A stretch of DNA of 64,000 nt from an uncultured beta proteobacterium (GCA_963747775.1 CAVVGT010000009.1:3409-67408), one strand, 5' to 3'; positions 13,782-58,869 are shown, numbered from the stretch's first letter. Notes: generated by a model not told the origin, from the letters alone. Numbers and translations: made by a program.

Positions 13782-13855
13782 ACTCTACTGCCGGTTGCTG
13801 AAACCGGGGTCGTGTAGAGCAGACTGGCTGCTACCGAGCGTTGAGGGGCGAATGC

Positions 13856-42178: not shown

Positions 42179-42982
42179 CTATGCCGCGTTGGGCTCCGCG
42201 TCCAGCCGCGCGACGATGCCCTCCAGCCCCCGCACCGCTGCGGGGTAGCGCTTGAGCACCAAGGGATCGTGACCCGGAATGACGTGCTGAGTCGAGCTCG
42301 CGAGAGCGTAGGCGCGCTGGTGCCCGGCGAGCATCTCGGGAACGTTGTAGACGATCGGAAATGGCCGCCCCTGCTCCATGTTCGCGTAGTAGTGGCTCGC
42401 ATCCGAGGCGAGCACGACCCAGCCGCGCTGCGTCCACACCCGGACCATCTGCAGACCCATTGTGTGGCCGCCGACGAAATGCACGCTGAGCCCCGGCGCG
42501 ATCTCTTCGTCGCCGTCGTGAAACACCACACGCCCGGCATAAACACGGCGCACCATGTTCACGACGTCCTCCACGTCGAAGGCGTGGCGCACCACCGCAT
42601 GACACATGCAGCGGCCCGTCGAGTAGCGCATCTCCTTGTCCTGGAGATGGAAGCGTGCGCGCTCGAACAACCGGTGATTGCCGCAATGATCGTAGTGCAT
42701 GTGGGTGATGATCACGTCCTCGATCTTGTCGGGGTCGATGCCGAGCGCACGCAGGCCCTCGCTCGGGCAGCGCTGCACGTTGCGCTGCCGCTGTCGTCCC
42801 ACCTCGGCGTCGAAGCCGGTATCCACGATCCACGTCTTCTCGCGGCCGCGGATCGCCCACACGAAGTAGTCGATCGGCATCGGTCCGTTGTGCGGGTCGC
42901 CGCCGATGAAGTTCTCGCCGGCGAGACGCTGGTGATCCCCGTACTTGATGGCGTAGATCTCGTAGGTCTCGGGCTGAGCCAT
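42179..42982 (-). CDS. MBL-fold metallohydrolase (N-acyl-homoserine-lactonase-like)
   Basis: 267 aa from MAQPETYEIYAIKYG, with HMHYDHCG (HxHxDH). Only the last 268 codons of track ORF 42179..44197 are credible. Confidence 0.85.
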   Translation of the reverse strand: MAQPETYEIYAIKYGDHQRLAGENFIGGDPHNGPMPIDYFVWAIRGREKTWIVDTGFDAEVGRQRQRNVQRCPSEGLRALGIDPDKIEDVIITHMHYDHCGNHRLFERARFHLQDKEMRYSTGRCMCHAVVRHAFDVEDVVNMVRRVYAGRVVFHDGDEEIAPGLSVHFVGGHTMGLQMVRVWTQRGWVVLASDASHYYANMEQGRPFPIVYNVPEMLAGHQRAYALASSTQHVIPGHDPLVLKRYPAAVRGLEGIVARLDAEPNAA

Positions 42983-43132
42983 GCGCGGTCCTCCAGATGC
43001 AAAGCTTGACATCGTTTTTCGCCGAGCGCACCGGCTGAACGCGAGGCCCGACCAATCCCATGGCGCTTGCGGCCAGGACGCCTCGCGCCCACCATAGCGA
43101 CTCCTGCCCGCACCGCGCCTTCGTTCCATCGC

Positions 43133-44611
43133 ATGGGCCGCCATCCAGGTACCCGACCCGACGACAAACCGGACCTGCCGAAGCGTCGCGACTTCCTCGC
43201 GCTCGGCGGCGCGGCGGCGGCCGCGGCGCTGCTCGAGCCGGCGCTTGCACAGGCCCTCGACTTCGGGCCGCGGTTCGCATGGGGCACGGCAACCTCCGCC
43301 TATCAGATCGAGGGGACGCCCCTGCGCGTCGGCGGCGGTGCGTCGGTGTGGGATGCCTTCTGCCGGCGACCCGGCGCGATTCGCGACGGCTCGTCGGGGG
43401 AGCTCGCCTGCGATCACTACAACCGCTACCGCGAAGACGTGGCGCTGCTGCGCGAGCTCGGCGTCGGCGCATACCGATTTTCGATCGCCTGGCCGCGGGT
43501 CCTGCCGGAGGGCACCGGCGTCGTCGACACCGTGGGTCTGGAATTCTACGACCGCCTGGTCGATTCCCTGCTCGCCGCAGGCATCGCGCCGTGGGTCACC
43601 CTCTTCCACTGGGACTATCCCGAGGCGCTCTACAGGCGCGGGGGCTGGCTCAATCGCGACAGTGCGCAATGGTTCGCCGACTACGCGGCGGCGGTGGTCG
43701 CACGCCTGTCGGACCGCGTGACGCACTGGATCACGTTCAACGAGCCCGAGGTGTTTTTGGTCCTCGGCCATCACCTCGGCGTGCATGCGCCGGGCGATAA
43801 GCTGCCCTGGAGCGCAGTGCTTCGCGCCGCGCATCACGTGTTGCTCGCGCACGGGCGCGCGACGGCCGCCATCCGCGCGGGGGCGAAGCGGCCGTGCGAG
43901 ATCGGTTACGTCGCGGCGCTCGAGCCCGCGATCCCCGCGACCAGCCAGACCGCGGACATGGAGGCCGCAAGACGCGCGACGTTCTCCGGCATGGCCGGCT
44001 GGCTCCTCGATCCCGTGTATCGGGGCAGTTATCCGGAGCGCGAGCTGAAGGCGTGGGCAACGGACCTTCCCGAGCTTCCAGGCGAGGATCTGCGCACGAT
44101 CTGTCAGCCGCTCGACTTCTTCGGCGCGAACATCTACCAGGGTAACGTCGTTCGAGCGGGCGCGGAGGGGAATCCGGAACGGGTGGCGCGGGCGCAAGGC
44201 GCCCCGCGCACGCTAATGGAGGTGTTCGACGTCGTTCCCGCGGCGCTTCAGTGGGGCCCGCGCTTCTACTGGGAGCGCTACCGTCTGCCGATCGTGGTGA
44301 CCGAGAACGGCCTCTCGGGGTGTGATTGGATCGCGCTGGACGGTCGCGTCCACGATCCGCAGCGCATCGACTTCATGGAGCGCTATCTCGGCGAGCTCGC
44401 GCTCGCCCGCGCGGCCGGTGTCGACGTGCGCGGCTATTTCGCCTGGAGCCTGCTCGACAACTTCGAATGGGCGGAGGGCTATCGCCAGCGATTCGGCCTC
44501 GTCCACGTCGACTTCGCGTCGCAGCGCCGGACGCCGAAGGACTCCTTTCGCTGGTACCGCGACGTGATCCGCCGCAGCGGCGCTTCGATCAAAGGACGCG
44601 CGCCCCGCTGA
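43133..44611 (+). CDS. GH1 beta-glucosidase with twin-arginine signal
   Basis: KRRDFLALGGAAAAAALLEPALAQA, then FAWGTATSAYQIEG, acid/base TFNEP and nucleophile VTENG. Confidence 0.9.
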   Translation: MGRHPGTRPDDKPDLPKRRDFLALGGAAAAAALLEPALAQALDFGPRFAWGTATSAYQIEGTPLRVGGGASVWDAFCRRPGAIRDGSSGELACDHYNRYREDVALLRELGVGAYRFSIAWPRVLPEGTGVVDTVGLEFYDRLVDSLLAAGIAPWVTLFHWDYPEALYRRGGWLNRDSAQWFADYAAAVVARLSDRVTHWITFNEPEVFLVLGHHLGVHAPGDKLPWSAVLRAAHHVLLAHGRATAAIRAGAKRPCEIGYVAALEPAIPATSQTADMEAARRATFSGMAGWLLDPVYRGSYPERELKAWATDLPELPGEDLRTICQPLDFFGANIYQGNVVRAGAEGNPERVARAQGAPRTLMEVFDVVPAALQWGPRFYWERYRLPIVVTENGLSGCDWIALDGRVHDPQRIDFMERYLGELALARAAGVDVRGYFAWSLLDNFEWAEGYRQRFGLVHVDFASQRRTPKDSFRWYRDVIRRSGASIKGRAPR

Positions 44612-44670: not shown

Positions 44671-45576
44671 TCAAGCTGGCGGCGGGCTCAGCGGAGCCGG
44701 ACCGCCGTCCTCGGTGCGGTCGGATTGCCTGGTGCGCTTCCGTGCCGGCCACGGCTTCCAGCGACGGTGCACCCACCACCACTGCTCGGGATGCCGCAGG
44801 ATCAATCGCTCGAGCGCGGCATTGTAGGCGCGCGTGTTGAGCCGGACCGCCTCGTTGGTGTCCTCGTGCTCGATCGGCGGCAGCGGATCCTCGAATCGCA
44901 GGACATGCCTCCCGCCCGGCTCCCGCCAGCTCGACGCCGGCACGACTGGTGCGCCGGTCGCGAGCGCGAGGACGGCCACGCTGCGGAACGTGCCGGCGGG
45001 CTGTCCGAAGAAGTCGACCATCACCCCGTCCTTGCGGCTCGCGTGCTGGTCGAAAGGAAACACGACGAGATCCCCGGCGGTCAGGCGGTCGAGAATGCCC
45101 TCCAGACCGCCGCGCTTCGGTAGCACGCCGAAGCCTGCGCGGAGGAATCGCCGCGTCACGAGATCGTCGAGCCAGCGCGGCTTGAAGGGGCGCCGCACAA
45201 AGTAGAACCGGCCCCGTGCGTGGGGATAGTTGGCGAGCCCCGCGGCGGTCGAGACCTCGAAGTTGCCGAAGTGCCCCGTGACGATGAGGACACCCTGTCC
45301 CCGCGCGAGCGCGGCCTCGAGCGAATCGAGATTCTCCACGCGCGCCATCGTTGCGCGCCGCTCGCTCGACACCCACGGAAACCAGAGGAACTCCCAGAAC
45401 AGGCAGCCGAGATGCGCGTAATGCGCTTGCGCAAGCCGCTCGATGTCTGCGGCCGGCGCCCCGGCGCCGAAGACGCGCCGCAGGTTCTCGAGAATCACGC
45501 CGCGTCGGAACGGCAGCAGCCGGTAGAGCAGCCTGCCGAGGAGCGGCGGCTCGGCCTGCGCGGGCAGCGCAAACAT
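44671..45576 (-). CDS. LpxL/HtrB-family (lysophospholipid/lipid A) acyltransferase
   Basis: GVLIVTGHFGNFE (HxxxxE catalytic motif region) and C-terminal RHPEQWWWVHRRWK. The start MFALPAQ lies 5 nt after the preceding stop. Confidence 0.85.
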   Translation of the reverse strand: MFALPAQAEPPLLGRLLYRLLPFRRGVILENLRRVFGAGAPAADIERLAQAHYAHLGCLFWEFLWFPWVSSERRATMARVENLDSLEAALARGQGVLIVTGHFGNFEVSTAAGLANYPHARGRFYFVRRPFKPRWLDDLVTRRFLRAGFGVLPKRGGLEGILDRLTAGDLVVFPFDQHASRKDGVMVDFFGQPAGTFRSVAVLALATGAPVVPASSWREPGGRHVLRFEDPLPPIEHEDTNEAVRLNTRAYNAALERLILRHPEQWWWVHRRWKPWPARKRTRQSDRTEDGGPAPLSPPPA

Positions 45577-45581
45577 CGCCG

Positions 45582-46868
45582 CTAGGCGCCGCGGGGGACG
45601 CGGAGGAGCAGCGCGGCGTTGGTGCCGCCAAACCCGCGGGACAGGACGAGTGCAACGTCGCTGCGCGGCGTTTGCGCCGTGGCAGACACCGGCAGGCCGG
45701 CGCACTCCGGATCGAGCTGGCGCAGGTTCGCGACGCCGGGCACGCTCGCCTCCCGCATTGCGGCCAGCGCGATGACCGTATCGACCATCCCGGAGGCGGC
45801 CAGCAGATGTCCGAACGCCCATTTGAAGCCGGTCACCGGCGGGGGCGCGGCGCCGAAAACGTGCCGGAGCGCGCGCGCCTCGGACACATCGGATTGTCGT
45901 GTGCCGTTCGCGTGCGCGACGATCAGGCCGACGTCACTGGGGCGCAGTCCCGCATTGACCAGCGCGCTTGCGATGGCGCGCGCGAGCCCTTCCCCTTCCG
46001 CGCTGATCGGCAACAGCCCGAGGCCGTCGCTCCCGTACCCGCTGCCGAGGATCTCGCCGAGCACCGTCGCCTTGCGTTGCGCGGCGGACGCCTCGGTTTC
46101 GAGGACGAGGGCGGCCGCGCCCTCGCCCATCGTGCTGCCGCTGCGCCCGGCGTCGAACGGTCGCACCGTGTCCTCGGAAAGCAGCCCGACGCGGTGGTAG
46201 TACAGGATCATCTGCGGCTCGATCGACGCGTCGTGGCCGACGGCCACGGCGCGCTCGCACTCGCCGGCGCGGATCGCCTCCGCCGCCTCGGCGATCGCGA
46301 GCGGCCCGCTCACGCTATGGTTGGTGATGCACGCATTCGGGCCTTTCAGCCCGTGCCGGATCCCGACGTGGCAGAGGACGTTGTTCGGCAACGTGCGCAG
46401 CAGCCACATCGGATTGACCGTTGCGGCGAGCTCGCGCCCGAAGGTCTCCAGACTGCCGTCGGCAGCGCTCAGCAGCGGGAAGTAGTCGTACTGGTTCTGG
46501 TAGCCGCCGCCGCCGGAGCCGACATAGACGCCCGTTGCGTCGCTATAGGTGGCCGCGGCGTCCGCATCGAGCGTATCGCGGTACGGGATCAACCCCGCCG
46601 CCTCGATCGCCTGTCCGGCGGCATAGAGGCCGAACACGTCCGTGCGGCGGATGAGCTTGAGCAACTTGCGGTCACCCGCGAGCGCACCGCCATTGTACTC
46701 GGGGACTTCGGCCGCGAACTTGGCGGGCCACTTCGATGCGTCCCATTGCTCGATCGGTCTGATCGCCGACCGGCCCGCGCGCAGCGCCGCGACGATCTCG
46801 GCCGGCGACTTGCCCGAGCCGCAGATCGCGCCCGTTCCGGTGATGACGATGCGCTGCGCGTCGGCCAT
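45582..46868 (-). CDS. beta-ketoacyl-ACP synthase-like protein lacking the active-site Cys (CLF-like partner)
   Basis: 428 aa from MADAQRIVITGTG. ITNHSVSG aligns with TACASG of the neighbouring KS (Cys to Ser). Both His motifs are retained (AHANGT, FGHLLAASG). Confidence 0.85.
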   Translation of the reverse strand: MADAQRIVITGTGAICGSGKSPAEIVAALRAGRSAIRPIEQWDASKWPAKFAAEVPEYNGGALAGDRKLLKLIRRTDVFGLYAAGQAIEAAGLIPYRDTLDADAAATYSDATGVYVGSGGGGYQNQYDYFPLLSAADGSLETFGRELAATVNPMWLLRTLPNNVLCHVGIRHGLKGPNACITNHSVSGPLAIAEAAEAIRAGECERAVAVGHDASIEPQMILYYHRVGLLSEDTVRPFDAGRSGSTMGEGAAALVLETEASAAQRKATVLGEILGSGYGSDGLGLLPISAEGEGLARAIASALVNAGLRPSDVGLIVAHANGTRQSDVSEARALRHVFGAAPPPVTGFKWAFGHLLAASGMVDTVIALAAMREASVPGVANLRQLDPECAGLPVSATAQTPRSDVALVLSRGFGGTNAALLLRVPRGA

Positions 46869-46873
46869 TCGCT

Positions 46874-48190
46874 TCACCCGAGCGCCGCGCGCCCGTCCAC
46901 TTCCTCGGGGTTGCGGAAGGCGAGGCAGCTGTTGGAGCCGCCGAAGCCGAGCGAGTTGGACAACGCGATTCGTATCCGCTGCTGGCGCGGTTCGCCGCGC
47001 ACGACGTTGACGTCGCAGTCGGGATCGATCTCGCGCAGGTTGGCGCTGACCGGCAGCGTGTCGGTGTGGATCGCCAGCGCGCACACCGCGGCCTCGACGG
47101 CGCCCGCGGCGGCGATGAGATGGCCCATGACGCTCTTGGTCGAGCTCACCGCGACGCGGCGGAAATCGTCGCCGAACACCGCCCGCACGGCAGCGCATTC
47201 GCTGCGGTCGTTCATCGGCGTGGAGGTGCCGTGCGCATTCAGGTAGTCCACGTCTGCGAGCGACGCCCCGGCGTCGCGCAGCGCCTGGCGCATCGCCTGG
47301 ATGGGTCCGTCGCCGGACGGGTGCGAGTCGGTGATGCGGTAGCTCGACAGCGAGTTTCCGTCACCGGCCAGCTCCGCATAGATCCGCGCGCCGCGCCGGC
47401 GGGCGGACTCCCACTCTTCGAGCACCAGGAAGCCGGCCCCCTCCCCGAGAACGAAGCCGTTGCGCGTCACGTCGAACGGGCGGCTTGCGCGCTCCGGCGT
47501 GTCGTTATCGGGCGAGACCGCGTTCAGCAGGCAGAAGCCGGCCAGCCCGACTGGGTTGATCATCGAGTCGAAGCCTCCGGCGAGGACGCGGTCGGCAATC
47601 CCGCGGCGGATCACTTTCAAAGCGGTGCCGATGGCCTGGCCACCGGACGCGCAGGCAGTGTGCACCGAGCTCGCATAGCCGCGGATGCCGAACCGGCGCA
47701 TGAGCAGCGCGACGCCCGCGGTCGACTGGCTGCGGCAGAACACCATCGGATCGGCCGCCGCGCCGTCGCCCGCCAGAAGCCGATCGGTATCGAGCTCGCC
47801 GCCCGGCGCCGCACACCGATGCACGTCCGCAAGATCCTCGAAGGGGACGCCCATCATTCCGGTGCCCACGACGCAGCCCCAGCACGTGCCGGTCTCAGGC
47901 GTCGGCGCGACGCCCGCGTCGCGGATGGCCTGCTCCGCGGCGGCGAGCGCGAACCGGTGCGAGCGATTGGCCGACTTGAGGAGCTTCCGGTCGTCGATGA
48001 CGCGCTCGGGCTCGAAACCCTTCACCTCCGCGGCGATCCGGACCGGGAAGCCGCTGGCATCGAACGTCCGGATCGAAGCGACGGCACTGCGCGCGGCGAG
48101 CAGCGCGCTCCAGGTCGTCGCGACATCGTTGCCGGCGGGCGTCACGAGCCCCAGGCCGGTGATCGCGACGCGGCGCGGACCCTGCGTCAC
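46874..48190 (-). CDS. beta-ketoacyl-ACP synthase (FabF/KAS II-like)
   Basis: RVAITGLGLVTP, VHTACASGGQAIG, LNAHGTSTPMND and KSVMGHLIAAAG give an intact Cys-His-His triad. Confidence 0.9.
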   Translation of the reverse strand: MTQGPRRVAITGLGLVTPAGNDVATTWSALLAARSAVASIRTFDASGFPVRIAAEVKGFEPERVIDDRKLLKSANRSHRFALAAAEQAIRDAGVAPTPETGTCWGCVVGTGMMGVPFEDLADVHRCAAPGGELDTDRLLAGDGAAADPMVFCRSQSTAGVALLMRRFGIRGYASSVHTACASGGQAIGTALKVIRRGIADRVLAGGFDSMINPVGLAGFCLLNAVSPDNDTPERASRPFDVTRNGFVLGEGAGFLVLEEWESARRRGARIYAELAGDGNSLSSYRITDSHPSGDGPIQAMRQALRDAGASLADVDYLNAHGTSTPMNDRSECAAVRAVFGDDFRRVAVSSTKSVMGHLIAAAGAVEAAVCALAIHTDTLPVSANLREIDPDCDVNVVRGEPRQQRIRIALSNSLGFGGSNSCLAFRNPEEVDGRAALG

Positions 48191-49029
48191 GACATCCTCC
48201 GCGGCGCGATCTCGGCGCGTCCGGTCGACACGGACTTGCCGTTTGCGCGCGCTGCGAGGCTAATCGTCGCTCCGTCCGGCGTCGCGGACCGGAGCTCCAG
48301 GCGAAGCTCGAGCACCTGGCCGGGCGAAATGAACGAGCGCATCTTGACGTCGCTCGCTCGCACCGGGGCGAGTATGTCCGCGTGGCGCAATGCCGCCGTC
48401 TCGCCCGCGAGCTGCACGGCCAGGCCGATCTGGGTATCCAGGAGCAGCGTCCCCGGAAACACCGGACGCCGCGGAAAGTGGTCGCCGAAGAACGGGGCGG
48501 TCTCGGGCACGCGCAGCTCGGCACGCAATCGCTCCCCGGCCACGCGCTCGATGATCGCGACTGCGCGCGGCGGGACGCCCTGAAATCTTCCCGCCGGCGC
48601 ACCGGCCCCGCGCAGCACTTCGAAATCCGCGCGGACCGCCTCGGGGGCATCGAACTCGTCCATCGGCAGCATCGGTCCGACGCAATGATTGAGCGCCAGG
48701 ACCTGCCATCCATCCACGCTCGCGGTGCCGCCGTACGCAATCGCCCCCTCGTCGCAGCTCTCGATGCCGACCTCGAGATCGAGCGTCTGCCCGGACGCCA
48801 CGTCGCGCGCGAACAACGCCTCGCCCGCGAGACCCGCGACGGGACGGAAGCGGAAATCGAGTTGCGACATGGATGCCCAGGCGGCGAGCTGGCCCACTGC
48901 TTCAGCGACCAATGATGGCGGGAACTGTGCGACTGCGCCCGGAATCCAATAGCGCCCGGTGGCCCGGATGCCCGGCTCGAGGCGCGTGATCCGGTCGACG
49001 AACGAGAACGCGCTGAAGCGCTCGGCCAT
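48187..49029 (-). CDS. double-hotdog 3-hydroxyacyl-ACP dehydratase
   Basis: 280 aa. The C-terminal half carries the FabZ motif FFGDHFPRRPVFPGTLLLD. The N-terminal half is a second hotdog-like region without that motif. ATGA overlap with the KS start. Confidence 0.75.
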   Translation of the reverse strand: MAERFSAFSFVDRITRLEPGIRATGRYWIPGAVAQFPPSLVAEAVGQLAAWASMSQLDFRFRPVAGLAGEALFARDVASGQTLDLEVGIESCDEGAIAYGGTASVDGWQVLALNHCVGPMLPMDEFDAPEAVRADFEVLRGAGAPAGRFQGVPPRAVAIIERVAGERLRAELRVPETAPFFGDHFPRRPVFPGTLLLDTQIGLAVQLAGETAALRHADILAPVRASDVKMRSFISPGQVLELRLELRSATPDGATISLAARANGKSVSTGRAEIAPRRMS

Positions 49030-49058
49030 CGATCCCGGACGCCCCGCAGCCGGCGCGC

Positions 49059-49484
49059 TCAGGCCGCCGCCTGGGCGGCGCGCTGCGCGCGGATGACGAC
49101 CTTGCAGAAGGTCTCCGGCGTGAAGAGCTTGGGGATGTCCGCGGACTTCATCGGGGTCTTGAAGCGCTCGACCGGCACTTCGCTCAGGAACTCGCGCAGG
49201 CGCTTGTTCCCGATCTCGGTGAGCACGCCCTTCTGCTCGAAATCGGATTCCGCAAGGTCGCCGCGCGCGTCCTCGACGATTTTGCCGCGAGGGATCTTGA
49301 CGCCGAACGCCCGCTCGAGCCGGAAGACGAGGTCCAGAAAGTCGATCGACTCGGCGCCGAGCTCTTCGATGAGCGGCGCCGCCGGTTTCACGTCCGCGGT
49401 CTCGAGACCGAGCGCATCGGCGATGATCTGGGCCACCTTGGGGTAGACCGTTGCAATCTCTTCCTTGCTGATCGCTTGCTGCAT
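49059..49484 (-). CDS. acyl carrier protein with ~60-aa C-terminal extension
   Basis: EELGAESIDFLDLVFRLERAFG carries the phosphopantetheine Ser context. The start is taken at MQQAISKEE (alternative 49511). The tail RGKIVEDARGDLAESDFEQKGVLTEIGNKRLREFL... has no ACP counterpart. Confidence 0.75.
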   Translation of the reverse strand: MQQAISKEEIATVYPKVAQIIADALGLETADVKPAAPLIEELGAESIDFLDLVFRLERAFGVKIPRGKIVEDARGDLAESDFEQKGVLTEIGNKRLREFLSEVPVERFKTPMKSADIPKLFTPETFCKVVIRAQRAAQAAA

Positions 49485-49488
49485 CCTG

Positions 49489-50247
49489 TTACTCCATCTT
49501 GAAGCCGCCATCGACGTGCAGGACCTCTCCAGTGACGTAGTCCGCGAAACGCGAGGCGAGGAACCAGACGGCGTATGCGACGTCCAACGGCTGGCCGAAT
49601 CGACGCAGCAGGATGCGTCCCTTCACCTCGTCGCCCGCCGCGTCCCGAACCGCCTGCGACATCTCGGTCTCGATCACGCCTGGCGCCACGCAGTTCACCG
49701 CGATCTTGCGGGGCGCGAGCTCGACCGCGAGCGCTCGAGTGAAGGCGTTGATCGCGCCCTTGCTCGCCGCGTAATTCGTCTGTCCCCGGCCGCCCTTCTC
49801 GCCCGAGACCGAACTCAGATTCACGACCTTCCCGGCGCGCCGCGCGATCATGTGCGGCACCACCGCGCGCGTCACGTTGAACACGCCGCCGACGTTCGTC
49901 TCGAGCACGGTGCGGACGTCCTCGTCCTCGAGCAAGCCCAAAAGATTATCACGGATCACCCCTGCATTGTTCACCAGGATATCGATCCGACCCCACGCGT
50001 CTGCCAGCCGCTCCACCGCGGCGCCGACTGCCTTCGCGTCGGTCACATCGACCTGATCGGCCGTGACCCTGAGCCCCGCGGCGCGCGCCTGCTCGACCAC
50101 CTCCGTCGCCGCCGCGGCATTGCCGCGATAGAAGAACGCGACCTCCGCGCCGTCGCGCGCGAAGAGCTCGACGATTGCCCGTCCGATGCCGCGGCTTCCG
50201 CCGGTCACCAGTACCGTCTTGCCCGCGAGTCCCGACTCGATCTGCAT
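49489..50247 (-). CDS. 3-oxoacyl-ACP reductase (FabG-type SDR)
   Basis: 252 aa from MQIESGLAGKTVLVTGGSRGIG, with NNAG and catalytic YAASK. The upstream part of track ORF 49489..50679 is rejected. Confidence 0.9.
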   Translation of the reverse strand: MQIESGLAGKTVLVTGGSRGIGRAIVELFARDGAEVAFFYRGNAAAATEVVEQARAAGLRVTADQVDVTDAKAVGAAVERLADAWGRIDILVNNAGVIRDNLLGLLEDEDVRTVLETNVGGVFNVTRAVVPHMIARRAGKVVNLSSVSGEKGGRGQTNYAASKGAINAFTRALAVELAPRKIAVNCVAPGVIETEMSQAVRDAAGDEVKGRILLRRFGQPLDVAYAVWFLASRFADYVTGEVLHVDGGFKME

Positions 50248-50255
50248 CGTGCCCG

Positions 50256-51011
50256 CTAACCCGATATGGCGAACCCGCCGTCGACGAACAGCGTGTGGCC
50301 GTTGATCATGCCCGCCTCGGGCAGGCAGAGGAGGTAAACCGCCCCTGCCACATCCTGCGGCGTGAGCACCGGACCGGCCGGCGTGCGCTGAGCGAACGAC
50401 GCGAGCAGCGCCTCGCGATTCGGGAAGTGTTGGAGGGCATCGGTGTCCACGACGCCCGCGCTCACGGCGTTCACGCGAATTCCGCGCGGGCCGAGCTCCT
50501 GCGCGAGCGATCGCACGAGCGCTTCGAGCGCCGCCTTGGACGCGCCGATGAAGCCGTAATGCGGCATCGCGCGCAAGGCCCCGAGGCTCGACATCGCCAC
50601 GATCCGCCCGCCGGACGTCATCATCGGCACCGCGCGCTGCGCCAGCAGGTTGAGGGCGAAGGCGTTTGTCTCCATGCACCAGCGCCAGTGCTTGAGCGTC
50701 ATTTCCATCGTCGGCCGCAGTACCCCCGATGCGGCGTTGCTCACCACGATGTCGACTCGATCGAAGTGCTTCTTCAGCTCGACGAACAGCTCATCGACGC
50801 TTTCCGGCAGCCCGACGCTTGCCTTGATCGCGACCGCGCGCCTGCCCATGCCGCGAACCTCGGCGCACACCGCCTCGGCTTCGTCGTGGCTGTTGTAGTA
50901 GTTCGCCACCACGTCGCAACCGCCCGATGCGAGCTTGAGTGCGACGGCGCGGCCGATGCCGCGGGCGGCGCCGGTGACGAGCGCGACCCTGCCTGAGAGA
51001 ACGTCCGACAT
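50256..51011 (-). CDS. SDR resembling FabL-type enoyl-ACP reductase
   Basis: VALVTGAARGIG, SNAASG and MSSLGALRAMPHYGFIGASKAALE (a Yx6K-like spacing as in FabL/FabI-type reductases, from memory). Confidence 0.7.
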   Translation of the reverse strand: MSDVLSGRVALVTGAARGIGRAVALKLASGGCDVVANYYNSHDEAEAVCAEVRGMGRRAVAIKASVGLPESVDELFVELKKHFDRVDIVVSNAASGVLRPTMEMTLKHWRWCMETNAFALNLLAQRAVPMMTSGGRIVAMSSLGALRAMPHYGFIGASKAALEALVRSLAQELGPRGIRVNAVSAGVVDTDALQHFPNREALLASFAQRTPAGPVLTPQDVAGAVYLLCLPEAGMINGHTLFVDGGFAISG

Positions 51012-51023
51012 CCGCGCCCTTTC

Positions 51024-52088
51024 CTATTGCCGCTTTTCCGCCGCGGCCGCCGCGTTCTTGGCGCGCAGGAACCGCTGTGCCTCGAGCACCCAGTGCTTCT
51101 TGATGCTGTACCAGACATCCGCTGCCCAGAGCGCGTTGGCTACCGACGCGGCGTTCGCCGGAAACCCGTCGACCTGGCCGGGAACGTAGGCGTTCAGCCA
51201 TTCGCGCATCGCCGGGTCCTCGGCAAGATCGGCGACCGCAGCCACGGTGACGTGCGAGTAGCTGGCGGGCAATTCGATGTTGCGCACTCTCGCAGCGCCG
51301 CTCGCGCGATACGTCCCACCGACGCCCGGCAGATCCCACGCGATGAAATCGACGCCGAGCGAGTAGCCGGTGAAATCCTCGACCGTATCGGGAATGGTGC
51401 GCAAGCGGCCGACCATACTCCACTGGTTCGGGAGCAGTAACGCCGCGCCGCCGGCACCGACGGCTGACGCGTATCCCACCTTCAGCCCGACGACCGGACG
51501 CTCGTGACCCGTGAGCGGATCGAGGATCGTGGTCCGGCTCTCGGCGCGGTCGGTAAGCGGATTCCAGACCCGAATCGCGTTGCCGCCGTCCCCGGCGAGC
51601 TCGTGGAGCACTTTGACTGCCTGAATACCGCCCTGGCTGTGCCCGACGATGAGCGGCCGCAGACCGTCGTGCTCGTAGTACCACGCGATCAGTCCCGCGA
51701 GTTGCGCGCTGCTCTCGTAGGGGCTGTGGGACAGGCGCCCGTCGCCCGGATGGCGGATCTTGCTCTCCGGGTAGCCCATGGCGACCAGGAACCGCGCGAA
51801 CGACTCCATCACGAGATGGACCGGATAGATGCCTCCGTGCAGATTCACGATGCGCGGCGTGGGGCCGGCGGCGAGGACGGTTCGCACGTCGTCGTCGCTG
51901 ACACGCTCGGGGTCGAGCGCGAGAATCCGGTTCTGGTGCGCCGGGGCGACGTGCGTTTGCGCGAGCACGGAGCCCTTCTCGATCGTCTGAGCTTCGAGCC
52001 GTGCGCGCTCGGTGGTGGGCAGCGTTGCCGCGCAACCGGCAACGAGGAGGGCGAAAAGGATCGACAGGAGAAAGGCGGCGGCTTTCAT
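51024..52088 (-). CDS. alpha/beta-hydrolase-like lipoprotein (GHSQGG nucleophile elbow), paralogue B
   Basis: Lipobox MKAAAFLLSILFALLVAGC. IVGHSQGG. C-terminal WYSIKKHWVLEAQRF. Start taken from within track ORF 51024..52397. ATGA overlap with the upstream gene. Confidence 0.75.
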   Translation of the reverse strand: MKAAAFLLSILFALLVAGCAATLPTTERARLEAQTIEKGSVLAQTHVAPAHQNRILALDPERVSDDDVRTVLAAGPTPRIVNLHGGIYPVHLVMESFARFLVAMGYPESKIRHPGDGRLSHSPYESSAQLAGLIAWYYEHDGLRPLIVGHSQGGIQAVKVLHELAGDGGNAIRVWNPLTDRAESRTTILDPLTGHERPVVGLKVGYASAVGAGGAALLLPNQWSMVGRLRTIPDTVEDFTGYSLGVDFIAWDLPGVGGTYRASGAARVRNIELPASYSHVTVAAVADLAEDPAMREWLNAYVPGQVDGFPANAASVANALWAADVWYSIKKHWVLEAQRFLRAKNAAAAAEKRQ

Positions 52089-53395
52089 GAACCAGGCTCT
52101 TCGCGGAGACTCGCGATACAGCGGACAAATTCTTTCACTACCCCGTCGATGGCCGCCTGCGAGAACGCGGCCGTGCGGTACGAGACGCCGACATGGAGCA
52201 CGTCTCTTATCGTGGTGACTGCGAACACCATCGGGCACAGCGGGCCGGTGGGAACCGCCCGGATATAGTCGAACGTCGCGTCGCGGCCGTCTCCCCTGCC
52301 CCACAGCGCCTTCACATTCAGCGTGGTGACGCCCGCCCAGGCGGGATGGTATTTGACGAAGAAGCGGGCGCGCTGGTGCGGCGACAGGAAACGCCACATC
52401 AGCGCCGACACCCCGAGCGCGAGGAGACTGAGCAGATCGACCCGATTGGCCTTCACCCGCACGGTCTCGGCGTGAACGGCCTGGACCAGCGCGCGCAGCC
52501 CGAGGCCCGCCGGCACCGGGTGCGAGACGCGGAAGGAGGCGAGAAACGGGCTCAACGCGGTGCGCGCCGCCGGGCCGAAGTCGTCCCTGATGTTCACAAT
52601 CGAAGCCACCGCAAGCTCGCGTCGTCTAGGCTGTCTCGCACGCTCCGGAGCAAGCGGCGCAAGCGCCAGCAGGACGCTTGCCATCAGGAGATCGTTGAAC
52701 GTGACCCCCCAGGCCCTGCCCGCCCCGCGCAAGCCGTCCAGCGCCTCCGGCCCCAGGCTGAAGAACTTGAACGCATTGTACTGATCGTCGGCGCTTCCAT
52801 AGCGCGGGCGAAACGACCGGCGCGAGCTGGCCACCATGCGCGGCAGCGCGGCGAGCCCTTTCAGGATCCAAAGCGGATGGCGCAGCAACAGGCTGCGATA
52901 GGTCGCGGGATAGACCTCCAGCGGCGGCACCGCAGCCTCGGCCGCCACGCCGCCAACGTAGCGTTCGGCGATGTCCCTGAGCAGCAGTGCGATCGAGTCG
53001 CCGCCCGCCACGAAGTGATCATACGCCAAGGCGAGATGGAATTCCCCGCCGGCGTCGACGGCGACGAACCGGAACGGCGTGGACTTCGGTGCGGCAGCAA
53101 ATGGCGAGTTGAACTCGCGCTCGATCTCGCTGCTCAAGACACTGATCGCGTCGGCGCCGGCCGCGCGCACGCGGAGGTCGGCGTTGGCCGGGCCGCCGCA
53201 GTAGCGGAAGCGCCAGCGCTCCAGATCGACGACCAGGCCGGTCAGGCCGACGCCCTCCAGATGGCGGTCGATGCACGCCTGCAAGCGCGCGCGCTCGAGC
53301 GGAGCGGGGATCAATACGACGTGCACCGGGTTGTACGGATGCAGCTCGCGCCAGCGCAGCATCATCCGCTGAAACAGATTGAGGTGGCCCTCCAA
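52085..53395 (-). CDS. condensation-domain-like acyltransferase (degenerate HHxxxDG: DHFVAGGDS)
   Basis: LNLFQRMMLRWRELHPYNPVH N-terminus and FHLALAYDHFVAGGDSIALLL core. The start is ambiguous: TTG at 53395 directly after the upstream stop, or ATG at 53365. Confidence 0.65.
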   Translation of the reverse strand: MEGHLNLFQRMMLRWRELHPYNPVHVVLIPAPLERARLQACIDRHLEGVGLTGLVVDLERWRFRYCGGPANADLRVRAAGADAISVLSSEIEREFNSPFAAAPKSTPFRFVAVDAGGEFHLALAYDHFVAGGDSIALLLRDIAERYVGGVAAEAAVPPLEVYPATYRSLLLRHPLWILKGLAALPRMVASSRRSFRPRYGSADDQYNAFKFFSLGPEALDGLRGAGRAWGVTFNDLLMASVLLALAPLAPERARQPRRRELAVASIVNIRDDFGPAARTALSPFLASFRVSHPVPAGLGLRALVQAVHAETVRVKANRVDLLSLLALGVSALMWRFLSPHQRARFFVKYHPAWAGVTTLNVKALWGRGDGRDATFDYIRAVPTGPLCPMVFAVTTIRDVLHVGVSYRTAAFSQAAIDGVVKEFVRCIASLREEPGS

Positions 53396-53397
53396 AA

Positions 53398-54456
53398 TCA
53401 GCGCCTCGCTTGCTGAACCGCCCGCTGGGCGCGTACCAGGCGCTGGGCCTCGAGGCACCAATGCTTCTTGATGCTGAACCAGATGTCGGCGGCGTGCAAA
53501 AGGTTCTGGGTGTCCACGCCCGCCGGTGCCGGCGTCGGCGCACCCGGCGCGTAGTGCTCGATCCAAGTACGCGTCGCCGCGTTTGCGGCCAGATGCGCCG
53601 CGGAGGGCAGCGATATGTGCGAATACTCCGCGGGGAGCGTGACGTTACGCACCTTGGCGCTCCCGGTCGGCCGATACGGATTGTCCTGCGCCGAACCCGG
53701 CGAGGTGCCGGCGATTACGTCCCATTCGATGAAGTAGCCGGTGAACTCGTCGACGGTGTCGGGCACGGTGCGCAGCCGCGACAGCATTCCCCACTGGCCG
53801 AGCAGCACGCGCATGAGACTCCCGGTCGCGAGCGCGGCCGCATACGGCACGCGCAGCCCCACGACGGGCCGGTCGGCGCCGGTGAGCGGGTCGGTGATCG
53901 TGAACCGGTCCTCGGCGGCATCGGTGACCGGGTTCCACACGGGGATGCGGTCGCCCGGGGCGCCGGCGAGATCCTGCAGGATCTTCACGGTTAGCATGCC
54001 GCCCTGACTGTGCCCGATCAGCATGGGCACGCTGCCTTCGCGCTCGTAGTGCCACGCGAGCGTCCCGGCGATCTCGCGGCTGTCGGCGAAGCTGCTGTAG
54101 GTGTAGCGGCCGTCCCGCGGGTTCCTGAGCCGCTCCGCCGGATAGCCCATCGCGATGAGGAACTCCGCGAAGGGCGCCATCGTCACGATCGGAACGCTGC
54201 CCTGCAGGCCGATGATGCGCGGCGCGGGCGCCCGCGCCAGGACCTCTCGCACCTCCTCCGGCGAGATCCGTTCGGGGTCGAGCGCGAGCAGCCGGTCCTC
54301 GGTCGCGCGGTCGAGCGATAGGCCGGCGAGCACGCCGCTCGGCGCGTGCGCCGCGCCTGGCGCCGCTGGACCCACTGGATCGGCGGCGAGCGCGAAGGGC
54401 GCGCCGAGCGCCAGGGCCGCGGCGAGGATTGCGCGGACGTGGCGCATGCGACTCAC
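53398..54456 (-). CDS. exported alpha/beta-hydrolase-like protein (GHSQGG), paralogue A
   Basis: Sec signal MSRMRHVRAILAAALALGAPFALAADP. LIGHSQGG. C-terminal WFSIKKHWCLEAQRL. Colinear with paralogue B over its whole length. Confidence 0.75.
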   Translation of the reverse strand: MSRMRHVRAILAAALALGAPFALAADPVGPAAPGAAHAPSGVLAGLSLDRATEDRLLALDPERISPEEVREVLARAPAPRIIGLQGSVPIVTMAPFAEFLIAMGYPAERLRNPRDGRYTYSSFADSREIAGTLAWHYEREGSVPMLIGHSQGGMLTVKILQDLAGAPGDRIPVWNPVTDAAEDRFTITDPLTGADRPVVGLRVPYAAALATGSLMRVLLGQWGMLSRLRTVPDTVDEFTGYFIEWDVIAGTSPGSAQDNPYRPTGSAKVRNVTLPAEYSHISLPSAAHLAANAATRTWIEHYAPGAPTPAPAGVDTQNLLHAADIWFSIKKHWCLEAQRLVRAQRAVQQARR

Positions 54457-55094
54457 GGCGGGCCCTCAAGCTTCGACTTGCCCGCCCCGAAGTGCGGCAC
54501 GAAGCGACCGGTCCGGCGGCAATAGCTCGCATAGGCCTCGCCCTTCGCACCGAGCAGGAAACGCTCCTCGTTGCGCGCCTTCACGAGCATCAGCAGGACA
54601 TGCACCGCCGCCACCACGACCATCGGAACGGTCGGGACCACCAGCGCGGAGCAGAGCATGAGCAGGACGCTCAGCGCGTAAATCGGGTGGCGGATGTAAC
54701 CGTAGAGGCCGCTCGTGACGAGGTCGGTCTGTTGATCGGGGGTGACCGCCATGCGCCAATTCTTGCCCATCCGGATCCAGCACTCGATGGTGAGCGCAAG
54801 GCAAGCGACTCCGACAACCGCGGCGATCCAGCGTAGCGCGACGTAGCCCGATGCGTAGGCGAAACCGGGAAGTGCCCAGGGCGCGCCGGAGCCGGTCGCG
54901 GCAAGGTAGGGAAGCGCCATCCACGCGAAAACGAGCGGCACCCAGACTACCCACATGAACTGCTCGAGCCGCTGCTTCGGCACGACGCCCGACAACTTCC
55001 GGGTCTTGCGGCGGATGCGTACCACCATGACGCCGACGCAGAACCAGTAGGTCCAGACCGTCGCCGTCAGTACCGTGACCGGTAGATCCTTCAT
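54453..55094 (-). CDS. ICMT/PEMT-family membrane methyltransferase
   Basis: Multi-span protein with GLYGYIRHPIYALSVLLML ... ARNEERFLLGAKGEAYASYCRRT. The start is taken at MKDLPVTVL (alternative 55133). ATGA-type overlap with the next gene. Confidence 0.75.
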   Translation of the reverse strand: MKDLPVTVLTATVWTYWFCVGVMVVRIRRKTRKLSGVVPKQRLEQFMWVVWVPLVFAWMALPYLAATGSGAPWALPGFAYASGYVALRWIAAVVGVACLALTIECWIRMGKNWRMAVTPDQQTDLVTSGLYGYIRHPIYALSVLLMLCSALVVPTVPMVVVAAVHVLLMLVKARNEERFLLGAKGEAYASYCRRTGRFVPHFGAGKSKLEGPP

Positions 55095-55211
55095 AGCCCC
55101 GTCTGGCGCGCCGCCGCTTGCGGGTCCGCCCATCCCTGCGCCCGCGCGCGGTGGCGCCGGGTGTGCTGCAGTGCGGAGTCTACCGCGCCGGAGTGACGGA
55201 GACCGTGCGAA

Positions 55212-55943
55212 TCAGGGCGTGCGGCCGGGGTCGAACACCTGTCGCTTCCAGAGTTCCCAGGGACGCTCCGACACCGAGCGGTTGGTCTCGTCGGAGCGGG
55301 CGGCCTCGTCGGCCTCGAGATAAGTGACGGTGCCGCCGAGCGCGATCGCCTTCTGCTGGGCCGCCGCATTCACTTCGGTGTAGATCGCCCGATAGACCGC
55401 CACCGGAATGCTCTCCGCTACGGCCACGAACCCGTGACCGCGCATCAGCAGAACGCCTTGCGCGCCGAGGTCGCCGGCGAGCGCCGCCCCCTGTTCCCGA
55501 TTGCGCACCAGCAGGTCGGTGCAGCCGAAGTGCTTGCGAATGTCGAAGACCGGCGCTCCGGCCGCGAGGAAGCTCCCCATGTGGTAGATGGGGCGCAGCT
55601 TCACCGAAGAGGCCGCGAACGGGATCACCGAGGGCGAGTGGCTGTGCACGATCGCGTTCACGTCCGCCCGCACGCGGAAGATCGCGCCGTGTATGAATCG
55701 CTCGAGATAGGGCTTGCGGGTGTCGCCGCCCTGCGCGTTGGAGTCGAGGTCGAACTCCATGATGTCGGCAGCGGAGACGAGTTCGGGGGCGCGGGAGCAG
55801 GCGAGCAGGAACCGGTCCGGCCGCTCCGGGTGGCGCGCACTGACGTGCCCGAACCCGTCGAGCACGCCATGGTGCGCGAGGATGCGATTGGCGGCGACGA
55901 GGTCCTCGACGAGGGCCGTCACCACGGCGCCGGGTGCGCTCAT
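55212..55943 (-). CDS. class II aldolase/adducin-domain protein
   Basis: 243 aa with GFGHVSARHP, AIVHSHSP and LMRGHGFVAV. Confidence 0.85.
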   Translation of the reverse strand: MSAPGAVVTALVEDLVAANRILAHHGVLDGFGHVSARHPERPDRFLLACSRAPELVSAADIMEFDLDSNAQGGDTRKPYLERFIHGAIFRVRADVNAIVHSHSPSVIPFAASSVKLRPIYHMGSFLAAGAPVFDIRKHFGCTDLLVRNREQGAALAGDLGAQGVLLMRGHGFVAVAESIPVAVYRAIYTEVNAAAQQKAIALGGTVTYLEADEAARSDETNRSVSERPWELWKRQVFDPGRTP

Positions 55944-55947
55944 TCGC

Positions 55948-57042
55948 TCAGATCACCGCTTCGTTGCCGCCGTCGAAGAAGTGCACGCGGCCGGGATCGA
56001 GCACCAGGCGGACGCTCTCGTGCATCTTGACGCGGACGCCCGGGTCGACCCGGGCCACCACGGACGCCGCGCCAACGCGCACGTCGAGCAGGATCTCGGA
56101 GCCGAGCGGCTCGACGACGTCGATCGTGGCGCCAAACGTGTAATCGGCGGGATCGGACCCGTTCGCGAGCCGCAGGGCCTCCGGCCGTACGCCGAGCGTC
56201 GCGCGCTTCCCGGCATACGCGCGCAGCCGCGCGCCGTGCTCGGGCGACACCTTCACGCGGAACCCGGGCGCCTCGGCCCAGATCGTGCCGGCCGCGTCCG
56301 CGATTGCCACGTCCAGGAAGTTCATCGCGGGCGACCCGATGAAGCCGGCGACAAACTTGTTGGCCGGCTTGCCGTAGAGCTCCATGGGCTCGCCCACCTG
56401 CTGCACCACGCCATCCTTCATTACGACGACGCGGTCACCGAGCGTCATCGCCTCGACCTGGTCGTGGGTGACGTAGACCGCCGTGGTCTCGAGCCGGTCG
56501 TGCAGCCGCTTGAGCTCGACCCGCATCTGGACCCGGAGTTTCGCGTCCAGATTGGACAGCGGCTCGTCGAAGAGGAAGAGCTGCGGATGTCGGACAATCG
56601 CGCGCCCGAGCGCGACGCGCTGGCGCTGACCGCCCGAGAGCTGGCGCGGCTTGCGGGCGAGCAGCGGCTGGATGCCGAGGATATCGGCCGCCGCCTGGAC
56701 GCGCTTCTCGATTTCCTCCTTCTTGAACTTGCGCATCTGCAGCCCGAACGCCATGTTGTCGTACACCGACTTGTGCGGGTACAGCGCGTAATTTTGGAAC
56801 ACCATCGCGATGTCGCGGTCCATCGGCGGGAGGTCGTTGACGATCCGGTCGCCGATGCGGATCTCGCCCGAGCTGATTTCCTCCAACCCCGCGATCATGC
56901 GCAGCGTCGTGGTCTTTCCGCAGCCAGAGGGACCGACGAAAACCATGAACTCCTTGTCGCGGATGTGCAGGTTCACGTCCTTCACTGCGTGGACGTTGCC
57001 GTCGTAATACTTGTTTATGCCCGTGAGTAAGACTTCAGCCAT
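55948..57042 (-). CDS. CUT1 sugar/glycerol-3-phosphate-type ABC ATPase (UgpC/MalK-like)
   Basis: GPSGCGKTT, LSGGQRQRVALGRA, FLFDEPLSNLD and a C-terminal TOBE-like region. Confidence 0.9.
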   Translation of the reverse strand: MAEVLLTGINKYYDGNVHAVKDVNLHIRDKEFMVFVGPSGCGKTTTLRMIAGLEEISSGEIRIGDRIVNDLPPMDRDIAMVFQNYALYPHKSVYDNMAFGLQMRKFKKEEIEKRVQAAADILGIQPLLARKPRQLSGGQRQRVALGRAIVRHPQLFLFDEPLSNLDAKLRVQMRVELKRLHDRLETTAVYVTHDQVEAMTLGDRVVVMKDGVVQQVGEPMELYGKPANKFVAGFIGSPAMNFLDVAIADAAGTIWAEAPGFRVKVSPEHGARLRAYAGKRATLGVRPEALRLANGSDPADYTFGATIDVVEPLGSEILLDVRVGAASVVARVDPGVRVKMHESVRLVLDPGRVHFFDGGNEAVI

Positions 57043-57044
57043 TG

Positions 57045-57896: not shown

Positions 57897-57899
57897 CGC

Positions 57900-58859: not shown

Positions 58860-58869
58860 GGTCGTCGAA

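Follow-up and report, generated by a model that had tools for sequence, protein, structure and literature searches.

The question that this locus raises is what is built by eleven contiguous genes in which a fatty acid synthase (FAS)-like set adjoins four tailoring genes, and whether these genes form one system at all. They lie in a stretch of 64,000 nucleotides (nt) of DNA from an uncultured beta proteobacterium (GCA_963747775.1, CAVVGT010000009.1:3409-67408); the whole stretch is referred to as the window, and positions are counted from its first letter. The eleven-gene block is a real conserved unit, in which two modules can be distinguished. Module 1 comprises genes 1-4 and module 2 comprises genes 5-11, usually plus a gene for an AcpS-type phosphopantetheinyl transferase; the border, between hydrolase 2 and FabL, measures 12 nt.

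A six-frame open reading frame (ORF) listing with translation gave eleven consecutive minus-strand genes, from 55133 to 44671, with no other gene between them (Table 1). This agrees with the preliminary description of the locus, which was made from the sequence alone and had reported eleven tightly packed genes; the neighbors overlap by 4 nt or are separated by at most 29 nt. With homolog-supported starts, the junctions from gene 1 to gene 11 are -4, +2, -4, +12, +8, +4, +29, -4, -4, and +5 nt, and the true start of gene 1 is probably the ATG at 55094 ('MKDLP...'), as in its homologs. An Rfam scan and promoter/terminator scans detected no leader, terminator, convincing promoter, or internal boundary in or around the operon. 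Families were called with Pfam and NCBIfam scans against curated cut-offs, and structures were predicted with AlphaFold2 from database-homolog alignments and then compared with the PDB using Foldseek. The enzyme families had been read correctly in the preliminary description, and all the motifs quoted there are present in the translated proteins; its order of the upstream four genes requires correction, since the condensation gene sits between the hydrolases (methyltransferase, hydrolase 1, condensation, hydrolase 2).

Conservation was followed in a one-genome-per-species scan (185,579 species) with an alignment of the condensation protein as the query, which found 145 loci, of which 80 were kept. 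The kept loci are all in metagenome-assembled genomes (MAGs), nearly all of them from Burkholderiales (Casimicrobiaceae, Rubrivivax, Ideonella, and 'uncultured beta proteobacterium'). Sixty-six loci in which the visible sequence extends 9.3 kb or more beyond the condensation gene on its downstream side were treated as informative, and the eleven window proteins all served as tblastn queries against them. In 55 of these 66 loci, the FAS-like genes are present together with the acyltransferase, all on the same strand and in the window order, at 44-95% amino-acid identity. Median identity to the window is 49% for the condensation protein, 54% for the dehydratase, 57% for the methyltransferase, 59-62% for the hydrolases, 65% for both the ketosynthase (KS) partner and the acyltransferase, 68% for the acyl carrier protein (ACP), and 72-79% for FabG, KS, and FabL, and the catalytic residues are kept throughout the relatives. 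The outer flanks are variable, the commonest flank family being present in 13 of 75 loci, and a search for a universally conserved flank gene, such as an exporter or a regulator, found none. The same order in 55 species-level loci among unrelated flanks places the block far beyond chance and defines the unit.

Since each module is also found alone, the operon reads, by comparison of gene content, as a fusion of two autonomous modules that is stable in one clade. Module 1 stands without module 2 in 11 of the 66 informative loci, where unrelated, often convergent genes follow, and it is distributed over Burkholderiales and Verrucomicrobia-type contigs. A metagenome scan with the dehydratase returned more than 530 relatives; where at least 4.5 kb was visible upstream of the dehydratase (26 loci), 17 loci start at FabL and have no module 1, and nine have it. 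Context was also examined for ten distant condensation relatives, which share 26-32% identity with the window apart from one at 47%. The condensation gene has an ICMT-like neighbor in L087, L090, L174, and L085, at about 30% identity (in L085, a hydrolase homolog comes in between), and is fused to one in L084; the condensation gene is alone in L088, L091, L172, and L173, and it has neither an ICMT-like gene nor module 2 beside it in L076, a Verrucomicrobiales MAG. Natural fusions with the methyltransferase at the N-terminus and the condensation enzyme behind it were found in two unrelated lineages, as P0086 (L083:10001-11917) and P0462 (L084:10001-11965); the closer of the two, P0086, is followed by a hydrolase, FabL, FabG, and the ACP.

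Such separability is what would be expected if two unrelated operons merely lay head to tail, with the modules acting on different substrates and the eleven-gene 'system' being a synteny artefact; each module is frequent without the other, and they have zero genes in common. We consider this very unlikely. The 12-nt junction carries no terminator or promoter signal, and the juxtaposition persists in 55 species down to 44% identity while the outer flanks all change. It also survives the loss of either hydrolase and the fusion of the methyltransferase to the condensation (C) domain, with FabL still next, and distant C-domain homologs again stand beside late acyltransferases of two families. The single eleven-gene system of the preliminary description therefore holds as a co-occurrence in most Burkholderiales carriers but not as an obligatory arrangement; separation of the upstream four genes from the FAS-like genes, which had been named there as evidence against one system, does occur in part, in the 11 and 17 loci given above and in distant phyla.

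Several of the 17 loci with module 2 alone contain a divergent acyl-AMP ligase-ACP-alpha-oxoamine synthase, either as a fusion of 1100 amino acids (aa) or split, together with an ABC-2 exporter. Neighbors of the acyl-AMP ligase type lie upstream of FabL, at about positions 2100-7600, in L135, L168, L164, L103, and L143, and an epimerase-family reductase is also present in L164 and L143. We take this set of ligase, ACP, oxoamine synthase, exporter, and reductase to resemble bacterial sphingoid-base synthesis. In L147, an ACP-AMP-ligase-PlsC-type acyltransferase fusion is found upstream of FabL instead, and L143 contains, upstream of the FAS module (1167-6339), an additional KS/KS pair together with a displaced copy of the ACP and an epimerase-family gene, the ACP being absent from its usual place in the main block. 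As a separate observation, an extra 0.6-3.3 kb precedes FabL in four loci, after the second hydrolase in L032 (about 12373-14831) and after the condensation gene in L064, L052, and L054; it may be an insertion or an additional gene.

Table 1. The eleven genes of the operon, with positions in the window.
Gene	Product	Coordinates	Strand	Length
1	ICMT/PEMT-family membrane methyltransferase, polytopic	54453..55133 (longest ORF)	-	226 aa; 213 aa from ATG 55094
2	Hydrolase 1, exported alpha/beta hydrolase, SPase-I signal	53398..54456	-	352 aa
3	Stand-alone condensation-domain acyltransferase of the nonribosomal peptide synthetase (NRPS) type, cytoplasmic	52085..53395	-	436 aa
4	Hydrolase 2, lipoprotein paralog of gene 2	51024..52088	-	354 aa
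5	FabL-type enoyl-ACP reductase	50256..51011	-	251 aa
6	FabG-type 3-oxoacyl-ACP reductase	49489..50247	-	252 aa
7	Dedicated ACP with a C-terminal tail (about 60 aa)	49059..49484	-	141 aa
8	Fused double-hotdog 3-hydroxyacyl-ACP dehydratase	48187..49029	-	280 aa
9	FabF-like ketosynthase, Cys-His-His	46874..48190	-	438 aa
10	KS-like partner, chain-length-factor-like, Ser for active-site Cys	45582..46877	-	431 aa
11	LpxL/HtrB-superfamily acyltransferase without N-terminal membrane helix	44671..45576	-	301 aa

Module 2 contains an acyl-chain factory and a terminal acyltransferase. FabL, the best-conserved gene of the block (median identity 79%), scores 348.6 bits against an equivalog cut-off of 328 (NF005975), so that the enoyl reductase that had been read from the sequence is indeed present; FabG scores 247.9 bits on NF009466 (cut-off 222) and 267 bits on TIGR01830. 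The KS combines PF00109 and PF02801, scores 426.7 bits on NF005589 (cut-off 387), and contains the motifs TACASG, NAHGTST, and GHLIAAAG; its Cys/His/His triad is conserved in the relatives, and its best PDB match is the FabF of T. thermophilus (341 bits). The KS-like partner also matches PF00109 and PF02801 and carries the motif ITNHSVSG; Ser is present in 46 of 48 of its orthologs, and the two His residues in 48 of 48 and 47 of 48, respectively. Its PDB matches include FabF and chain 6kxd, 'Ketosynthase', at 148 bits.

The ACP matches PF00550 and contains the motif LGAESIDFLDLV; the phosphopantetheine Ser is found in all 61 of 61 sequences, and the tail of about 60 aa is conserved in sequence and length (total 138-144 aa). 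The nearest solved structure is 2kw2, 'Specialized acyl carrier protein' (E 5e-10), which we take to be an AcpXL-type carrier of Rhodopseudomonas palustris. Residues 2-130, including the tail, align with a 133-aa ACP (L081:10664-11065) from a reducing type II polyketide synthase (PKS) on a plasmid of Streptomyces sp. NBC_00891, and the long-tailed ACP is thus an older, shared type rather than a local oddity. The dehydratase matches PF07977 in its FabZ-like C-terminal half, contains the motif FFGDHFPRRPVFPGTLLLD, and has the catalytic His in 51 of 52 sequences; its two halves correspond to separate dehydratase genes in Streptomyces. All close homologs carry precomputed matches to both PF22818 (ApeI-like) and PF07977, and PF22818 was not recovered by hmmscan in the window protein or in P0121. 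A plasmid search with the dehydratase returned only type II PKS loci of Streptomyces and a Caballeronia locus that carries no annotation; the latter gives weaker matches (27-43% identity) to the ACP, dehydratase, LpxL-family gene, KS, and FabG.

One alternative to be weighed is a natural-product cluster of the reducing type II PKS/FAS kind, whose diffusible, fatty-acid-derived product (a methyl ester or an acyloxyacyl compound, for instance) would act as a signal or surfactant, with the hydrolases serving in activation, turnover, or self-protection. The KS, KS-like partner, split-type dehydratase, and long ACP come closest in organization to the Streptomyces reducing type II PKS, the aryl-polyene-type domain PF22818 occurs in dehydratase homologs, an ABC-2 exporter sometimes adjoins module 2, and the distribution is patchy and modular. 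However, the operon is not accompanied by any conserved thioesterase, exporter, or regulator, the terminal acyltransferase of the lipid A superfamily argues for a membrane acceptor, and a lipoprotein hydrolase together with a polytopic methyltransferase suggests a membrane-resident product, so that a secreted metabolite appears quite unlikely.

The terminal acyltransferase matches PF03279 (142.5 bits) and contains TGHFGNFE, and the HX4D/E dyad (H103, E108) is kept in all 46 of the 46 sequences compared. The first profile position matched is 41, showing that the LpxL-type N-terminal membrane helix is missing; a hydrophobic N-terminal helix is absent. The protein falls below the cut-off of every NCBIfam model of the LpxL, LpxM, LpxP, and LpxXL types, the best being PRK08419 (111 bits against 248), and the PatA model gives 82 bits. 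Between the KS-like gene and the acyltransferase, 54 loci carry an AcpS-type phosphopantetheinyl transferase gene (about 125 aa, e.g., L004:17778-18152), which is cleanly missing in the window (45576-45582, a 5-nt gap) and in L001 and L002, the two closest relatives of the window. This comparison indicates a loss of the AcpS gene in these three loci and a canonical operon of twelve genes; the dedicated ACP of the window must then be activated by another enzyme.

The closest parallel in gene order is the rhizobial locus acpXL-fabZXL-fabF2XL-fabF1XL-adh-lpxXL, which places on lipid A a fatty acid of very long chain length (PMC11901934, PMC5613085); both loci have the order ACP-dehydratase-KS-KS-PF03279 acyltransferase on one strand (PMC11901934), and in both, private elongation feeds a late acyltransferase. 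A C26-C34 (omega-1)-hydroxy acyl chain on lipid A is the product by which the rhizobial system is defined. In contrast to the rhizobial locus, the operon has a fused double-hotdog dehydratase instead of a single FabZ, the active and inactive KS in reversed order, its own FabL, FabG, and (in most relatives but not in the window) AcpS, a 60-aa tail on the ACP, and an acyltransferase without a membrane helix; the Zn alcohol dehydrogenase is absent, and the hosts are Betaproteobacteria. The model scores are likewise all far below the cut-offs, with 47.8 of 83 bits for AcpXL, 317 of 629 for FabF1XL, 56-58 of 320 for FabF2XL, and 87 of 273 for LpxXL, where NF005079, NF005076, NF005084, and NF005120 are presumed, with model length as a guide, to be the respective models.

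As in the aryl-polyene cluster of E. coli (ape, PMC8253772) and the highly reducing type II PKS of L081, a KS stands beside a presumably non-catalytic partner, the dehydratase halves are, for the ApeI-like one by homolog annotation, related to ApeI-like and FabZ-like subunits, a FabG-type reductase is present, and the cluster includes a lipid-anchoring acyltransferase and, as in Streptomyces, a long ACP. Unlike these systems, the operon encodes an enoyl reductase, and the acyl chain should thus be saturated. The acyl-AMP ligase or aromatic starter, thioesterase, glycosyltransferase, and LolA/RND export functions of aryl-polyene clusters (ApeH, K, L, M, N, J; PMC8253772) are absent from the eleven genes, as is the class I methyltransferase, and the NCBIfam Ape models give no match. 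With equivalog scores far below the cut-offs, the earlier view that the operon is neither an aryl-polyene cluster nor an ortholog of rhizobial acpXL-lpxXL stands. Two further candidates were rejected: the cispentacin-type (Amc) type II PKS-like enzymes, for which the AmcF, AmcE, and AmcB matches are all below cut-off, and the exosortase-associated acyltransferase/hydrolase systems, for which zero NCBIfam matches were obtained.

In searches of Pfam, NCBIfam, the PDB, and homolog annotation, every member of module 1 proved to be unnamed, outside any curated model, and without a closely related solved structure, and the earlier statement that the tailoring module cannot be matched to known systems is borne out by the lack of a named or curated relative in the searches made. 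Gene 1 belongs to the ICMT/PEMT families by PF04140 (39.1 bits, cut-off 24) and PF04191 (36.3 bits, cut-off 25). It lies below the cut-offs of the NCBIfam subfamilies, with 78 of 160 bits for isoprenylcysteine methyltransferase (NF040696), 41 (40.8) of 325 for LmtA, and 29 of 270 for MddA; its nearest solved structure is the ICMT 4a2n (E 1.7e-8).

Gene 3 gives sub-threshold matches to PF00668 (22.8 bits against a cut-off of 30.6), PapA_C, and WS/DGAT; some of its homologs carry precomputed PF00668 matches, and the fusion P0086 reaches 35.2 bits. Its AlphaFold2 model (predicted local distance difference test score, pLDDT, 88.1; predicted template modeling score, pTM, 0.91) matches the starter C domain of the CDA synthetase (4jn5, E 2e-22, template modeling score, TM, 0.68), AzeD (8s6l, TM 0.76), and Cy and E domain structures, within a TM range of 0.68-0.76. 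The predicted fold is that of a genuine two-lobed, chloramphenicol-acetyltransferase-like NRPS condensation domain, and the top match is a starter (lipo-initiation) C domain that uses acyl-ACP. In the motif YDHFVAGGD, His127 is invariant at the catalytic position, and the Asp is shifted relative to HHxxxDG. A profile search of the full library returned 1148 clusters (50% identity) at E<=1e-3 and 427 at E<=1e-30; the sampled relatives are unnamed, 'hypothetical', or 'NRPS condensation-like uncharacterized' and are of metagenome origin, including Akkermansiaceae and Verrucomicrobiales MAGs. A tblastn search of 72,556 plasmids with the condensation protein gave zero matches.

The hydrolases of genes 2 and 4 are paralogs with 46-48% identity, both with a GHSQGG nucleophile elbow, and neither has any Pfam or NCBIfam match; against PDB chains, single-sequence and profile searches reached at best E 0.015-0.5. 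In 50 sequences, Ser151 (in GHSQGG), His279, Asp190, and Asp247 are invariant, and Asp234 is about 90% conserved (gene 4 numbering). The model of hydrolase 2 (pLDDT 88.9) has an alpha/beta hydrolase fold with a long C-terminal helix, and its Foldseek matches in the PDB are weak (best E 1e-3, query TM about 0.3-0.35) and point to minimal lipases of the Bacillus LipA type and type II thioesterases. With such weak fold similarity and failed PDB sequence searches, no specific hydrolase subfamily can be assigned, and the pair is predicted to represent a new family of serine hydrolases with an intact triad; at least 3117 proteins in the database can be counted to this family, and none of them carries a Pfam domain. 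The copy upstream of the condensation gene lacks a lipobox in 52 of 58 cases and usually has a leader of the signal-peptidase-I type, and the downstream copy has a lipobox in 44 of 58 cases (LVAGC in the window). This split of export signals between the two positions suggests one soluble periplasmic hydrolase and one lipoprotein hydrolase.

Taken by themselves, the module 1 enzymes could also point to an aminolipid. In such a route, the C enzyme would N-acylate an amino acid or amine from a (3-hydroxy)acyl-ACP donor, the LpxL-type enzyme would add a piggy-back chain to the 3-hydroxyl, which is the task of OlsA, the ICMT-type enzyme would methyl-esterify the alpha-carboxylate, and the exported esterases would turn the lipid over; module 1 alone would give an N-acyl amino acid methyl ester from housekeeping acyl-ACP. 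ICMT methyl-esterifies the carboxylate of a lipidated cysteine, OlsA acts in ornithine lipids, and stand-alone C domains commonly act on free amines or alcohols. Consistent with these precedents, the top structural match of the condensation enzyme is a lipo-initiation C domain, and the best matches of the methyltransferase (NF040696 and 4a2n) are carboxyl methyltransferases. Module 1 occurs without a nearby acyltransferase or FAS in many genomes, and stand-alone methyltransferase-condensation pairs would be well explained. Two further features suit an aminolipid, namely the acyltransferase without a membrane anchor and a gene of the OlsC family (Asp_Arg_Hydrox) after the acyltransferase in five loci. 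However, there is no linked gene for an adenylation enzyme, for amino-acid supply, or for an OlsB-like protein, and the LpxL/LpxJ and O-antigen-ligase neighbors suit lipopolysaccharide (LPS) better. In favor of such a route, the genes for N-acyl alanine methyl esters are reported as unknown (PMC11580390), and a link of module 1 to these esters of Roseobacters (PMC11580390, PMC6296433) is put forward purely as an idea. Overall, we regard an aminolipid product as unlikely.

We tentatively favor, at somewhat less than an even chance, an operon that makes and decorates an envelope lipid, the target being lipid A or a chemically similar lipid with an amide-linked hydroxyacyl chain. The acyltransferase of the operon is itself a member of the PF03279 late-acyltransferase superfamily, and similar enzymes recur around distant relatives of the condensation gene. 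In L076, two PF03279 genes, both with the N-terminal region, precede the 47%-identical homolog, which shares a 4-nt overlap with the second of them and is translationally coupled to the pair; in L013, the methyltransferase-condensation pair is convergent with a gene of the fatty-acid-desaturase family and another PF03279 gene. In L084, the ICMT::condensation fusion begins 9 nt after a gene of the DUF374 family, to which the late acyltransferase LpxJ of lipid A synthesis belongs (PMC6148475). A Wzy_C (O-antigen-ligase-like) gene lies upstream in 13 of 75 loci (e.g., L050:6900-8204), and in five it immediately precedes the methyltransferase gene in the same orientation (L028:6814-8190, L036, L040, L060, and L062). 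An Asp_Arg_Hydrox gene (PF05118) directly follows the 3' end of the acyltransferase on the same strand in another five (L029:18158-19099, L023, L044, L045, and L067); LpxO and OlsC are members of the Asp/Arg-hydroxylase family. These last five loci all lack the second hydrolase. Two operon proteins also point to lipid A: the methyltransferase is homologous, at a score below cut-off, to LmtA (TIGR04571, the lipid A 1-phosphate methyltransferase of Leptospira), with which it shares the ICMT fold family, and the ACP has 2kw2 as its nearest structure. The gene order shared with the acpXL-lpxXL locus (PMC11901934) points the same way.

Several observations weigh against a lipid A-like target. All carriers are uncultured MAGs. 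The membrane helix of LpxL and LpxM is missing from the acyltransferase, which falls below every curated LpxL, LpxM, and LpxXL model and whose superfamily includes enzymes that do not act on lipid A, such as PatA. Module 2 alone often stands beside the sphingoid-base-like set, which is not lipid A-like, eleven module 1 loci have no acyltransferase within 9 kb, and LPS-type flanks are found in a minority of loci and could reflect lineage synteny. Moreover, to our knowledge, no periplasmic alpha/beta hydrolase that deacylates lipid A has been described, and we know of no lipid A pathway with a condensation-domain enzyme or periplasmic alpha/beta hydrolases. A broader possibility, which we hold with rather less confidence than the lipid A-like target, is that the methyltransferase/condensation/exported-hydrolase trio is a widespread unrecognized pathway by which lipid A or an aminolipid gains a methyl group and a further acyl group, followed by periplasmic remodeling, and that it recruited module 2 in Casimicrobiaceae-like soil bacteria.

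For an operon acting on a lipid A-like target, the following course can be proposed. By analogy with pairs of a KS and a chain-length factor, the KS and its Ser-type partner would form a heterodimer, in which the partner, having kept its two His residues, may decarboxylate malonyl-ACP for priming. FabG, the double-hotdog dehydratase, and FabL would complete each cycle, giving a saturated, length-defined chain on the long-tailed ACP; the intact catalytic residues and family membership, the conserved ACP tail, and the AcpS gene inside the operon in 54 loci are the basis for a saturated chain on a private carrier. The ACP would be activated by the operon's AcpS in most species and by another transferase in the window. 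The soluble LpxL-type enzyme would then move the chain from the carrier to its acceptor on the cytoplasmic side of the inner membrane. The condensation enzyme, tethered or next to the methyltransferase, may transfer an acyl group from a thioester onto a hydroxyl or amine of the same lipid, and the ICMT-type enzyme may cap a carboxylate or phosphate with cytoplasmic S-adenosylmethionine. These two steps are probably coupled, as the two genes are neighbors in several phyla and form fusions in two lineages, the chemistry itself being inferred. After flipping and export, the periplasmic and lipoprotein hydrolases could trim or transacylate an ester-linked group of the putative lipid substrate.

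A comparable division of labor is known from mycobacterial acyl-trehalose and phthiocerol dimycocerosate (PDIM) lipids, in which a dedicated FAS/PKS is combined with a PapA-type acyltransferase and exported cutinase-like (Chp) or Ag85 hydrolase acyltransferases. The operon likewise has a dedicated acyl-chain factory, an acyltransferase with a C-domain fold (and a weak PapA_C match), and exported serine alpha/beta hydrolases; the likeness is one of analogy only, since sequence-level membership, MmpL, FadD, and a sugar acceptor gene are absent and the hosts here are Gram-negative. Literature searches combining methyltransferase, condensation, and ketosynthase, or a stand-alone condensation enzyme and lipid A, found no paper describing the locus in the library searched.

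The genes that surround the operon in the window are probably not part of the conserved unit. Its 3' end faces a convergent GH1 glycosidase gene (43067-44611, plus strand), a divergent member with a possible twin-arginine translocation signal, which is not conserved with the operon. Beyond it, a metallo-beta-lactamase-fold protein (42179-43054, minus strand) is weakly similar to quorum-quenching N-acyl homoserine lactone lactonases (58-59 bits, below cut-off) and is not kept alongside the operon in relatives. Upstream on the same strand, about 117 nt away, lie a gene resembling class II aldolases/decarboxylases and the four genes of a sugar-type ABC transporter (55212-60165, minus strand); as this flank is shared only with the closest relatives L001, L002, and L092, these genes are probably outside the system, and read-through transcription is possible.

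The suggestion made in the preliminary description, that a special acyl chain is placed on an envelope lipid that is then methylated or transacylated, remains the best reading, and its word 'unprecedented' applies to the combination and to module 1 but not to the kinds of enzyme. What is new is the combination together with the module 1 trio, whereas an acyl-chain factory plus a late acyltransferase is of an already known kind. Rhizobial acyl-chain factories for lipid A determine outer-membrane stiffness, stress tolerance, and host interaction; if the reading is true, a second, independently assembled version would exist in abundant uncultured soil Betaproteobacteria. Envelope-lipid assembly is not known to involve the folds of module 1 (the condensation domain of NRPSs, the ICMT-type methyltransferase, and the new family of exported hydrolases), and the operon would be the first case in which the condensation fold of NRPSs serves to assemble an outer-membrane lipid. 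As the two modules are so cleanly divided, the function can be tested by expressing them singly or together in a tractable Gram-negative host. Since the condensation family has more than 400 deep clusters, none of them named, the assignment of its reaction would annotate thousands of 'hypothetical' genes. No rule is broken by the locus; rather, it adds a large, wholly unannotated enzyme set for envelope-lipid modification, which may reveal a new modification of lipid A or an aminolipid that affects permeability, resistance to antimicrobial peptides, and innate immune recognition.

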